NCBI GenBank assembly: GCA_951406725.2
Contig: OX597824.1
Coordinates: forward strand, 58,962,001 to 59,026,000
Direction: 5' to 3'
Length of the DNA: 64,000 nt
Origin: Octopus vulgaris
Lineage: Eukaryota
How positions within the stretch are numbered: the first letter of the stretch is position 1; every line of letters begins with the position of its first letter. The notes under the pieces were generated by a model. That model saw only the letters and a list, made by a program, of their open reading frames with translations, was not told where the DNA came from and ran no database searches. The position numbers and the translations under genes are program-made. Of this stretch, positions 47,424-52,655 are shown piece by piece.

Positions 47424-48358
47424 TTTTTTGTTTCTCATTCAGAAAAGGAAATTGAACTCAACAATCATTTCCATTGTTTATTTTTCTTCTCTTTTTATTT
47501 CCTATTCCTTGTGTGACATATATAGGGGAATAGTTATTTTAAAACTCTCATGAGAGTGAAAATTGAGATGAGGCACCGGGAGAAAGCCTGTACATCAACT
47601 TTTAATCTGGCCATATTGGATTTCACATACTTATATTTATTGGGGAGTGTTGCCAGGCGCAGATAACTCGCTGTTATGCATACTACAACGTTACGGTCGA
47701 TACTCGGCTGGTTTTGTCGATGATTAATAGAAAGCTTAAAGGACGAAATATATGTTTTTATCTTTTTCCTAAAGTTTCGCTTTGTGGTTGGAGAAGTGAG
47801 TGCAACTTCGATTAGATTTCTGCCTGATAAATGAAATGGCAGGGTGTATGATGGAGACTAGGAATTTATCAGGGAACAACAATTTTCCTCGCCTCAGTTC
47901 CACTTAGCTGGATAATTTCCACAATGCACTTCTAATTGCGAGTCTAACTGTGATAGAGCAGCATCATATCCAGTGCTTTCAATGTGCATCTAATGTATTT
48001 CACTTTCTTTTTAGCAAATCAATGAGTCAGACGTGGTTTATCGATTTGCTAGAAATAGCACTCAAGCTTCTTTAACAGTATAAGAGCAGTATTTATGATA
48101 GAGTTCTAGATGTATTATATCTGGAATGTTTACATACATTTATACACATATAAATATGGGGGGGTGCACGTGCGTTCGTGTGTGTAGGTATCACTATGTA
48201 TATACGTGGCTGTGTGTTAAGAAGCTTGCTTCCCAACCACATGGTTCCGGGTTCCGTCCCACTGCGTGGCACCTTGGGCCAGTGTCTTCTACTATAGCCT
48301 CGGGCCAACCAAAGCTTTGTGGGTGGATTTGGTAGACGGAAACTGAAAGAAGATCGTC

Positions 48359-48402
<44 letters not shown>

Positions 48403-48791
48403 TCTTTACTCTTTTACTCTTTTACTTGTTTCAGTCATTTGACTGCGGCCATGCTGGAGCACCGCCTTTAGTCGAGCAAATTGACCCCGGGACTTATTCT
48501 TTGTAAGCCCAGTACTTATTCTATCAGTCTCTTTTGCCGAACCGCTAAGTGACAGGGACGTAAACACACCAGCATCGGTTGTCAAGCAATGCTAGGGGGA
48601 CAAACACAGACACACAAACACAGACACATACATATATATATACATATATACGACAGGCTTCTTTCAGTTTCCGTCTACCAAATCCACTCACAAGGCATTG
48701 GTCGGCCCGGGGCTATAGCAGAAGACACTTGCCCAAGATGCCACGCAGTGGGACTGAACCCGGAACCATGTGGTTGTTTAGCAAGCTACTT

Positions 48792-51040
48792 TATTTCAAA
48801 ACATTTGCCATAAAGGCAGTACACAGATTAAGTTAGCTTTGCGGGCTGGACGAGGACATTAATGAGGTGAATGATAATGAAAGAAAGATGATAAGGATGG
48901 GAGAAGACAAAAAGCGCCTGCCGACTTTCGCTTCTCTAAAACATTGTTCTTTTTAAAGATAAACACAAAACGAGGTATTAAACCTCTTACAATTTTTCCA
49001 ATTTTTGGACTTAGCAGTCCATTATTAATACAAAACGAGGTATTAATCCTCTTACAATTTTTCAATTTTTGGACTTAAGTCCATTACTAATAATACATAT
49101 CGTCCTCGAAATAGCTTGTGCCCGCGCCCTCCACCATCAACCACGCCTCCCTCAGAACGTAGTCAAGTTCCGAGTTCGCGTCGCCCGGGACCAAGTTATA
49201 ATCTTCCTTAGCCCAAGCGTCACGTCGAACGTCACGTCGAACGTCACGGCCTCCACAGTTACCTGCGGAGGCCATTCGGGGTCCTGTGTGAAGGCTAAAG
49301 GTGCTCCCTTGTAGTGCTCTTCCATCACTTTTTCAATTTCTCCTCCTCTATAGAAGAGGACCAATACGTTCAGTTCTTTCGTTGGCGGCACAGTTTCCGC
49401 CAACGGTATTCCTTCTCTTGTCGGTGGCACAACCCCAACCGACGTAGTTCCGGGACATTCCGGTGCTACACTGACAGCCGGTAATGTCCCGTTTTTCTTC
49501 CTCTTTTTCTTTTTTTTCCCTTTTCAACTGAGGGAGGGTGCGTCTCCTCCGTGGCTGGAAGATTCGCCTTCCTCTCCTCATCCCTATTATCCTTTGGTGA
49601 GCACCCATTGTTGCTCACCTTCCTCTTTCGGCCTCTGTTTGAGGAGTCCTCTGCTTTCTCGGCCGTTATCGTTCCCTCTTCTAGAGGGGTTTTACTTAAC
49701 TGTTCCGGGATCCTATTTTGTTCCCGAGGACAGTTCTTCTTTATGTGGCCGGACTCCAAACACCGATGACACTTAGGGGGGCGACCCTCAAGCATCACCG
49801 GGTACCTGCACCCGGCCATTTTCAAAAAATCTGGAAGAACCAGATTGGCTGATTGGGTCCACAGGGTCAAAATTGCTTTTGACCCAACCCAAGCAGCCGC
49901 AGGAAGAACTTTTACATTGAGGAGCTTAGTTTCGCTGTCACCCAGACCCCGGCGGATAGTCTCCTCTATCCACTCGGGTTCTATGTCGGATGGCATTCCG
50001 CAAATCCAAGCTTTCATCAATTTCTTTTTTTTGTACGTGGGCAGGAATAAGATTTCCTTACCCTCCAGGGGTTTGCTAGCAAATTTGTAAGCCTCTTCAG
50101 GGGTGTCAAATAGCAACCACACCGTTGCATATTTGACACTCCTGGAAATGAATTTAATTGTTGGCAAATACTCTTCCAACTCCTTTTCAATTGCCGTCTT
50201 TTCGAATAGGGCGATGGTGTCAAGTGCCTTGGAGTAGGTTCTCAACACCACCGTCCCATCTTCACGGTCTTTTAACCACTTTTTAGGTGGTATGATTTCC
50301 CACTCCAAAATTTTGTTATTTTTCATTGCCATGTTTTTTTTTAAATATATTCAAATTAAACTCAAAAGCAGGAAGAAAAAAGTTCAAAAGTCCAAATAAA
50401 ATTTGATAGATTTTTGAAAAAACAAAAAGGAGAAAGCACAACAGAAGGGAAGAAATTAACGGAAAGTCGCAATAAAGAAAAAAAAACAAAAGGGGGGGGG
50501 GGTTTAAATGAAGTTCAAAAGAAAGTTAATAAACAGAAAAAACACAGCAAAAATATTCTGGCCTTGCGGTACTCCCGGCCTGGGTTGAACCTGGAACGCC
50601 GCAACTGCAACACAACCTCCACAAAAATGGGTCCGAAAGGTAATCCAATAGTGGCTTATTTTTATAATTTTCTTGCGAAGTACTCTGACAAGGGAATAAA
50701 TTCAACAAACCCAAACACAGCACTGGCTACCGCTAACGGTAATTTTAATAGTAACTTATTGAATTCTGAGGATACGCCCCTCCACTGTTTTTTCTTTTTT
50801 TTTCAATGAACACAAAAACGGCAGCCGCCGAGAGCAGGCGAAATTGTCTCAGAGTTGGACACAACTTACTGAAATAATAATTGGCACGCAATAAATTATG
50901 CCCAACTCACAATAAACAAAATCACTTACCTCGACAACTTTCCGTTTTTGTTGTTTTTTCTTTAATTGGACGGAGCTGATTGACTCGCGTCCACTCTCGC
51001 TGAACAGGAAGTAAATGACTAACTGCGCATGTGTGTCAGA
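48792..51040 (-). mobile_element. ORF1-only non-LTR retroelement (HAL1-like, Tx1-type) with 10-bp TSD
   Basis: TSD CAAGCTACTT at 48782-48791 and 51041-51050; about 700-bp 5' UTR; gag-like ORF; no endonuclease or RT motifs seen. Confidence 0.85.
49466..50332 (-). CDS. Tx1-type ORF1 nucleic-acid-binding protein with CCHC knuckle
   Basis: 288 aa; EGRPPKCHRCLESGHIKKNCP (CX2CX4HX4C), upstream RRM-like pattern, basic tail. A -1 frame extension runs to 49152. Confidence 0.88.
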   Translation of the reverse strand: MAMKNNKILEWEIIPPKKWLKDREDGTVVLRTYSKALDTIALFEKTAIEKELEEYLPTIKFISRSVKYATVWLLFDTPEEAYKFASKPLEGKEILFLPTYKKKKLMKAWICGMPSDIEPEWIEETIRRGLGDSETKLLNVKVLPAAAWVGSKAILTLWTQSANLVLPDFLKMAGCRYPVMLEGRPPKCHRCLESGHIKKNCPREQNRIPEQLSKTPLEEGTITAEKAEDSSNRGRKRKVSNNGCSPKDNRDEERKANLPATEETHPPSVEKGKKRKRGRKTGHYRLSV

Positions 51041-51073
51041 CAAGCTACTTACCACACAGCCACTCCTGCGCCG

Positions 51074-51131
<58 letters not shown>

Positions 51132-51184
51132 GTCTGTATTTGTTCCCCCACCACGCTTGACAACCGATTTCGGTCTATTTATCA

Positions 51185-52460
51185 CGATTGGAAGTAGAAC
51201 ACTCCTATTTAGTTGCTTCCTAATGGACTGTGCCACAATATAAATGGACATGCGAAGAGAGTTTGAAAGAGAGTCGGTTAACCGTTAGGTGTTGGTTTTG
51301 GTTTCTTTAAACGTGAGTTAAATTGTTACACACTGTTATTTATATATTTGTTATAGGTCTCCCCGCGCGGAAGAACCAAGGTTCGTTAAATTCTTAAATT
51401 GTTGAATTTCTGTCGTTGTTTTTTGCCTGTTCTGAAATTTATTTCTTCCCAAGTTATAGGTGAAGTGGTGAAAAGAGGAGAAATGGGGCATGGCGCAAGT
51501 TATGCATCCGCAACTACACAAGGTATTACGACCAACAACCTTGAAGTTCGCGAGATAAAAATAGAGAACAAGAAATAGAAAGAAAGAAACTAATAGTTAC
51601 AAAGGGAAGGGACCAGTTTAAACCTGACCCCACCAGAAGAAGTGACGAAGAATGTAGCAAGGAAAACGGTTGTGTACAGGACATTATCTACTTCTACCAA
51701 AAAAATAGAGATTACCCTAATAGAGGCAATATTGTAATGTCTAGGTGACGTGAAAGGCCTAACCACTTTTTATACTAGTGGAAGGAAATACGGCACAGTA
51801 GAGGTTAGGGTCTCCAACGAGGAGGACGCTATTAACCACTCTATTGAGCCGACAAGGACACAAGAGTGGGTGCTGCTGCCAACGTACTGTGGCAAACTTG
51901 TTGCCAGAGTGAGAGTCGGCAGACTGCCCCCCAAGATCGAAGAGGCATGGCCGGTGGCAGCAGTCACGCACGGAATTGAGGGTGTTGCAAGGATTCTGAA
52001 GATAACTAGAACGAAAAAAGTTAATCGTTGGGGATACGGCCTAGAGATGGCGATTCAAGTTAGGTTAAAGGACCTACATGGAATTGTAGAAGAGATTCTA
52101 CTACCAGAATATATTACGCTAAGAGTAGTTGTGGAGGGAAGACCTCCAAACATGTTTTTTATGCAAACAAAGAGTGCCCTCAGCAAGAAAGTAAAGTGGA
52201 GGAACAAGAATACGAAGGACAACCCGCCGAAGAGGAGGGGCTGATAATAAAGGAAAATAAGAGGTAATAGAGGAGTCCTTTAAAAAGAGATTAAAAAAGG
52301 AAGGAAATAGACTTTTTAAAAAAAGAAGAAAAAAACGATGCAAAAAGAAAAAGAAAAACTTTCAAAAATTGTATCAATTAATGGTACTGCTTGAGAGTGG
52401 GACTCAATGCAGCCATTTTATCATCATCGATTTCATTATACATTTTTTTCATTTTTCGTT
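51185..52460 (+). mobile_element. Second, decayed ORF1-only element of a related family
   Basis: KTVVYRTLS, RKYGTVEV, LLPTYCGK and VVVEGRPP align with the 49466 ORF; knuckle TCFLCKQR follows a frameshift. Confidence 0.8.
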
Positions 52461-52655
52461 CTATAGAATAAGCCCTATGCTTACAAAGAATAAGTTCTGC
52501 GATCGATTTGCTCGACTAAAGGTGGTGCTCCAGCATGGCCGCAATCAAATGAGTGAAACAAGTAAATGAATAAAAGAATAAAAGAATATATATATATACA
52601 TACACACATATATCCATACATGTGTGTGTGTGTTTGTGTGAGTATATAAATATAT

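Follow-up and report, generated by a model that had tools for sequence, protein, structure and literature searches.

We found that a 2.2-kb retroelement in the 64-kb stretch of octopus DNA analyzed here, hereafter the window, is one copy of a young family that encodes ORF1 only. This family very probably consists of non-LTR retrotransposons that insert at one base of a SINE and are copied by target-primed reverse transcription with the endonuclease (EN) and reverse transcriptase (RT) of a LINE, probably of the Tx1 clade, that uses the same base. Such a system would add to the known ORF1-only non-autonomous LINEs a molluscan case, probably of the Tx1 clade, that targets a single base, with three tiers of parasites: a SINE whose copies offer harmless landing pads by the tens of thousands, a LINE that uses them, and ORF1-coding passengers that exceed the LINE by ∼4:1 in our sample.

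The element and its insertion into a SINE head

The window contains exactly two copies of the 10-nt sequence CAAGCTACTT, at 48782-48791 and 51041-51050, and the 2249 bp between them form an element that lies on the minus strand and terminates in GAAATA (Table 1). The 3′ boundary is uncertain by 2 nt, as GAAATA/AA yields AATAAA with the first two target bases. An earlier note, made from the window sequence, had reported a 10-bp target-site duplication (TSD) around a 2249-bp element, a tandem duplication of ∼65 bp near the 3′ end, an end reading GAAATA, the lack of EN and RT, and insertion into a SINE head. We recovered each of these features: the repeat is exact at both flanks, the duplication and the terminal bases are in place apart from the 2-nt ambiguity with the target AA, and the insertion is preceded by 22 nt of the SINE head and followed by the remainder. 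No EN- or RT-like frame was found among the other frames of ≥60 aa within the element, which has too little space for ORF2. A second SINE copy at 48219-48382 is an inverted match to the host SINE at 48403..48781. Origin as a Helitron or DNA transposon was rejected because of the 9-10 nt TSD, the absence of a terminal inverted repeat, and the 5′ truncation of copies.

Table 1. Features of the element and its host SINE, by position in the window
Feature	Position	Strand	Basis or remark
Host SINE head, 5′ piece (A-box-like motif), separated from the remainder by the insertion	51051..51072	-	sequence
Upstream TSD, AAGTAGCTTG	51041..51050	-	exact repeat
Target-like 5′ leader, TCTGAC in the window copy; extends the TSD and rebuilds the target	51035..51040	-	
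5′ UTR, ∼700 nt, exchanged between subfamilies	50333..51034	-	three 5′ ends on one ORF1
ORF1 as read in the window copy, 288 aa: predicted RRM, RRM, CCHC knuckle, basic region	49466..50332	-	
CCHC knuckle in ORF1	49730-49771	-	
Remaining part of the 414-aa family ORF1, frameshifted in the window copy	49087..49523	-	
65-bp tandem duplication, 3′ UTR	48965..49092	-	2.0 copies, 92% match
Tail motif GCAAAGCTAACTT, imperfect reverse complement of the target	48830..48842	-	AGCTAC(T) in most relatives
Predicted TGCC-N5-GGCA hairpin, common to the element and its autonomous partner	48806..48818	-	
AATAAA spanning the 3′ junction, without a poly(A) tail	48790..48795	-	sequence
Downstream TSD	48782..48791	-	exact repeat
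Remaining host SINE: B-box-like motif, body, tail	48403..48781	-	sequence; inverted match to second SINE copy

Copies of the element in the genome

A genome search returned at least 40 near-full copies with 94-100% identity over 1.85-2.25 kb (40 scored of 3276 candidates), and 227 exact 3′ junctions of the window element's subfamily were counted in the genome. With the upstream TSD counted in, the 30 copies that were fetched are 2208-2280 bp long, and ORF2 is present in 0/30. Two extra searches with divergent ORF1 queries added 60 loci, 25 of which reach the tail at the target while 35 lack it by the pattern used; again, 0/60 had an ORF2 match downstream within the 1.5-kb flank. The ORF2-bearing relatives that the earlier note had named as the sign of a private deletion were thus absent from both sets, which confirms the window element as a member of an ORF1-only family. 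That note had also looked to copies of the same length with distinct TSDs. The length is indeed the same, but the TSDs are not distinct, because the family inserts strictly at the SINE site.

The SINE site is used by several divergent ORF1-only subfamilies. In a quick tree of 61 rows, whose deeper joins are unsure owing to long branches, 33 proteins of the ORF1-only type, one of them from Octopus sinensis, formed a clade (SH-aLRT 100) on a long stem and apart from the ORF1 of the autonomous LINE described below; the lineage is therefore old and keeps its own ORF1. One ORF1 with its tail carries three unrelated 5′ ends (L025-L030 versus L001-L024), two of which match other subfamilies, indicating that 5′ UTRs are swapped.

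All 30 fetched copies end GAAATA/AAGTAG. Upstream of the insertion, 29 of them have the same 22-nt SINE head as at 51051..51072, and the 30th has another ORF1-only element. A query with the window subfamily's tail and a different third target base gave 1 case against 227 exact ones, that case being a mutated SINE site; all 228 tail matches of this subfamily (228/228) therefore lie at one base of the SINE head, in a check that covers the window subfamily's tail only. Since the searches for copies used sequence matches and patterns containing the target, specificity counts for other subfamilies are partly built in. The target SINE is short, dispersed and of very high copy number, with at least 73,919 empty copies of the target (exact 31-nt empty sites) in the genome. 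Judging by its sequence, its head is tRNA-like: it contains what we take, by eye against the consensus, to be A- and B-box-like motifs, and neither ARAGORN nor Rfam returned a tRNA match for it.

ORF1 and its conservation

In the window copy, ORF1 comprises 288 aa from the Met at 50332, and its frame is broken. An A is missing from the A-run at 49503-49520, a change that could be an assembly error and that shifts the frame to an early stop; a second lesion, near 49205-49245, consists of a 12-bp duplication (49220-49243) and a 10-bp loss. ORF1 is intact, with 412-414 aa, in 10 of the 30 fetched copies and broken in 20, many at one A-run. The intact family ORF1 would end at 49087, and part of what the earlier note had assigned to a 3′ region is therefore coding.

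The same note had described a CCHC gag-like ORF. A single CCHC knuckle is present in the window ORF1 (Pfam zf-CCHC, E=0.0086, below the curated cut-off), but the likeness to retroviral Gag did not hold. Residues 1-215 gave a predicted fold with a mean pLDDT of 91 (62-row alignment), and the best Foldseek matches to this model were tandem-RRM proteins, e.g., SFPQ and hnRNP A1/A2, at E ∼4e-5 and with low whole-chain TM scores. An LTR or retroviral Gag origin was rejected because of this tandem-RRM fold. Structure prediction points to ORF1 as an RNA-binding protein with the order RRM-RRM-CCHC; no Transposase_22 match was found among 62 aligned ORF1 relatives. The account in PMC5203782 gives RRM-RRM-CCHC as the type I LINE ORF1 layout and ties it to Tx1 in non-mammalian animals. 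The nearest named proteins come from Octopus and Argonauta.

ORF1 is under purifying selection. Variants common to at least 3 of the 30 copies comprise 24 synonymous and 11 non-synonymous changes (pN/pS 0.13) and private variants 39 and 79 (pN/pS 0.58), a difference between classes with Fisher p=3e-4; these counts exclude codons 266-286 around the A-run. Between subfamilies, dN/dS, which the earlier note had suggested as a check on ORF1, was 0.13-0.27, dS exceeding 1 in most pairs and reaching saturation in one.

Two observations concern similar proteins elsewhere. Public octopus gene models (P0003 and P0042) contain the ORF1 domain under unrelated names, a K02A2.6-like fusion and EPM2A-interacting 1-like, that are probably mis-annotations. 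Protein-atlas look-alikes of L007:2210-2854 include ZCCHC3 RNA-binding domains (score 0.91), a lead toward the same architecture in ZCCHC3.

An autonomous LINE at the same base

With a looser tail pattern, 949 family-wide junctions were found in the genome. Six of the first 30 carry ORF2 and 24 are of the ORF1-only type, the latter made up of 21 with an ORF1 match, 2 with the tail only and 1 internally deleted copy. One locus, L064, is an intact autonomous LINE of 5.45 kb at the same SINE base. It encodes a 467-aa ORF1 and a 1133-aa ORF2 with Exo_endo_phos, RVT_1 and zf-RVT, the best solved-structure match of ORF2 being human L1 ORF2 (E=8e-67), and among the matches listed at least 40 copies are 99-100% identical over the last 1 kb. 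This partner combines an APE endonuclease, RT and the C-terminal zinc finger of the L1 group with a preference for the same SINE base, and its ORF1 contains zf-CCHC and is homologous to the modelled RRM-RRM-CCHC domain. It is likely a LINE of the Tx1 clade; because homologue searches with the family proteins returned no homologue named Tx1, the label rests on domain layout and targeting.

At E<0.1, DNA of the element matches that of the partner only in the last 37 nt, which are 78% identical and on their own give E=0.036. Since the two use the same base and have the last ∼37 nt in common, an L064-type LINE is the likely helper. Their ORF1s are 29% identical and are not grouped together in the tree, and the partner is therefore not a recent parent of the element, and the helper may be a different one. 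The earlier note had called the element HAL1-like, had suggested comparing its 3′ end with that of an autonomous Tx1 LINE, and had supposed that it borrows the ORF2 of such a LINE. Its ORF1-only nature stands, and the likeness to HAL1 holds as an analogy only; the comparison of 3′ ends succeeded, and the autonomous LINE at the same site makes borrowing credible. That note had missed the SINE site as a strict target.

Junctions and arrays

Of 48 junction pairs, 20 have an exact common prefix of 9-10 nt and 19 have one of 15-18 nt, the longer prefixes arising mostly because the element starts with target-like bases. The 5′ leader in copies other than that of the window is mostly (T)CTAAC or CTTACC, and by manual reading 14/48 pairs have the family leader, CTAAC or CTTACC, at the 5′ junction where the local target reads otherwise. 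At L004, another copy of the target, of donor type, comes after an 18-nt TSD. The target-like bases at 5′ junctions are absent from the local target, and from this we infer that the transcript starts within the upstream TSD or beside it. The element begins with target-like bases, and each insertion therefore rebuilds the site.

Elements also occur in mixed head-to-tail arrays of up to eight units, and those at L031, L032, L070 and L081 mix different subfamilies. Five of the first 30 junctions lead into another element, in 3 separate arrays; 3 arrays among ∼27 loci exceed the ∼1.3% exact-site occupancy (binomial p ∼0.005). The array at L078-L079 (G000:C1:223689000-223708800) has seven ∼2.0-kb ORF1-only units and then one 5.45-kb autonomous element, all inside one SINE head. 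Several of its units share a frameshift that is seen also at L081, and some arrays may be later duplications.

The 5′ ends of several subfamilies contain GCGCATG(T/C)GC or GACGTG words and GTAAG ∼100 nt in (in the window, at 51020-51035 and 50924-50932), which we take to resemble NRF1, CRE and splice-donor motifs. No joint in presumed-RNA contigs removes the splice-donor-like GTAAG. Contigs of four presumed-RNA runs cover 19-30/30 bins and those of three runs with other organism labels 30/30, and the former are uninformative on transcription, start and strand. Empty-site joints in the contigs of the three runs with other organism labels stem from any SINE copy and are silent on polymorphism at the window locus.

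Target-complementary motif and hairpin in the 3′ tail

The TGCC-N5-GGCA hairpin forms 4/4 pairs in 45 of 50 distinct tails, with its right arm fixed by the search pattern. Upstream of it, the motif complementary to the target lies near −45 in the tails of ORF1-only elements and near −80 in those of autonomous ones. At AAGTAG targets, 109 distinct junctions comprise 97 with AGCTA only in the tail, 9 with neither motif, 1 with both and 2 with AGCTT, these 2 being tiny truncated copies in which the motif comes from the upstream TSD. The variant target AAGAAG has 228 pattern matches in the genome; after three unrelated RT-coding sequences were dropped from the first 30, the remaining 27 gave AGCTTC in 15, AGCTAC in 4 and neither in 8. 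All of these motif and target counts come from related copies and are not independent events. The switch between AGCTAC and AGCTTC is seen in several tail types, including that of the autonomous L213.

In the window subfamily the motif is imperfect, with a 6-nt exact match that 14% of shuffles reach. When single tails were folded by minimum energy, the antisense motif was paired with the read-through target in 4/6, and the six folds gave no one common structure. Because the copies are related and the motif is imperfect in the window subfamily, we offer pairing of RNA and target only as a conjecture. It is possible, if rather doubtful, that the 7-10 nt tail motif pairs with either the top strand, once opened, or read-through RNA, thereby setting the 9-10 nt TSD and letting ORF1-only lineages retune between SINE variants without an endonuclease.

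Proposed mechanism and alternatives

We propose that transcription would start in or beside the upstream TSD and that ORF1 would package its own RNA. The partner ORF2 would bind the common 3′ hairpin and nick the bottom strand at CTACTT/ACC; this putative TT/A cut resembles the L1 endonuclease consensus TTTTT/AA as given in PMC8565326. The AATAAA end of the RNA, or read-through target bases, could then pair with the nick and yield the invariant junction, while the tail motif might, speculatively, pair with read-through RNA or the top DNA strand. A second cut would fall ∼9-10 nt away, where the leader would anneal. Arrays would grow because both junctions of a new insertion remain usable as sites.

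The flanks are identical in all copies, which would also be expected if a single insertion had occurred and the composite of SINE and element had then spread as a unit, through the SINE machinery or by segmental duplication. Also in favor of such spread, the 5′ leaders are inherited from a donor, and the frameshift shared by units of the C1 arrays indicates that some arrays may be duplications. We consider such spread very unlikely as an account of the family. Copies that are 99.9% identical occupy different SINE subtypes (8 combinations among 30), rare local target variants are found on both sides of the insertion in L016, L025 and L100, and copies shortened at the 5′ end to 51-341 bp and flanked by TSDs restart at the same base; on these three grounds the insertions are independent. 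Unrelated bodies, including the autonomous LINE, also sit at that base. Recent recurrent internal deletion of an autonomous element, which would make ORF1 a passive remnant, is extremely unlikely. The 20 broken ORF1s, many at one A-run, fit a remnant, but inherited changes show purifying selection (pN/pS 0.13), the ORF1-only proteins form a fully supported clade with a long stem and an O. sinensis member, and the DNA of the element resembles that of the partner in the tail only.

For the site-specific ORF1-only family that we favor, the helper could instead be another, unsampled LINE, possibly an autonomous one with a closer ORF1. The distance between the two ORF1s in identity and in the tree is consistent with this, further ORF2 families exist (57% identity at L088), and the junctions inspected numbered ∼130 of the 949 plus 228. 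All ORF2-bearing elements found at the site nevertheless belong to the L064 group (75-100% identity), none of the 60 further ORF1 loci has ORF2 downstream, and the element and the partner are both very young and occur together in arrays. A different helper is, on balance, unlikely.

Comparison with known systems

By analogy, the octopus family appears to work like HAL1 and HeT-A, yet it is not mammalian HAL1. Mammalian HAL1 has a poly(A) tail and dispersed AT-rich insertion sites, whereas the octopus family has no poly(A), a single-base SINE target and many coexisting subfamilies. Their ORF1s also differ, being of the Transposase_22 type (type II) in mammalian HAL1 and of type I, RRM-RRM-CCHC, in octopus (PMC5203782). 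ORF1-only LINEs, among them HAL1, HeT-A and Ag-Sponge, are described from the L1, Jockey and CR1 clades (PMC5753468, PMC5786205), the only clades in the list given by PMC5786205, and share with the octopus family a non-autonomous organization of 5′ UTR, ORF1 only and a LINE 3′ end. In the octopus family, ORF1 is under selection and the 3′ end, hairpin and target are held in common with an autonomous LINE; mobilization in trans by the partner's ORF2 is likely on these sequence features.

HeT-A, as described with TART and TAHRE at Drosophila telomeres (bioRxiv 10.1101/445429), resembles the octopus family in sharing one target with autonomous relatives, in forming head-to-tail arrays, and in outnumbering those relatives. 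Its target, however, is the Drosophila chromosome end and not a dispersed SINE, its ORF1 is indistinguishable from that of TAHRE whereas the octopus element and partner differ as given above, and the octopus family has no shown host function.

Target-specific LINEs of the Tx1 clade include Tx1 in Tx1D, Keno in U2 genes, and crocodilian Tx1-Mar, which occurs with SINEU-3 in Mariner-N4_AMi; elements aimed at other repeats and accompanied by non-coding passengers are reported from Xenopus and crocodilians (PMC4494074). An APE-RT LINE within another repeat, non-autonomous passengers at that site, and tandem insertions are thus shared with the octopus system. The targets listed in PMC4494074 are DNA transposons, LTR elements, snRNA and 5S genes, satellites and microsatellites, with no SINE head among them; the passengers are non-coding SINEU where those of octopus encode ORF1, and Tx1-Mar has a regional preference in contrast to the one base used in octopus. 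Annealing of target-derived RNA bases at 5′ or 3′ junctions has been proposed for R2, with its co-transcribed 28S leader (PMC3774820), and for R1Bm and SART1, with target-like 3′ sequences (PMC7265360). The R2 leader is a likeness to a transcript start within the upstream TSD as we infer it here, but the R2, R1Bm and SART1 sequences are sense to the target and the octopus tail motif is antisense.

A cephalopod ORF1-only Tx1-type family or a LINE that targets a SINE head was not found in the openly accessible literature, nor by keyword in two octopus repeat papers (PMC13282606, PMC8967140). The natural variants described here make it testable why a passenger retains its own ORF1 and whether RNA-target pairing plays a part in site choice by APE-type LINEs. 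The intact partner, with its precise and abundant target, is a candidate tool for targeted insertion in cephalopods.

Other ORF1-only lineages

The window also contains, at 51180-52470 on the plus strand, a decayed copy of an older, separate ORF1-like family whose copies are ∼80% identical. Its ORF1 is 24% identical to that of the window element, other copies end in AATAAAGA, and the 15 loci read had no ORF2 inside and no fixed SINE target; this is a second ORF1-only lineage. At L219, with its tail found also upstream in L024, an element with a 29% identical ORF1 and a different tail occupies an AAGAAG target. No ORF2 match was present within 1.5 kb of the junction, and the element possibly represents another independent ORF1-only lineage.
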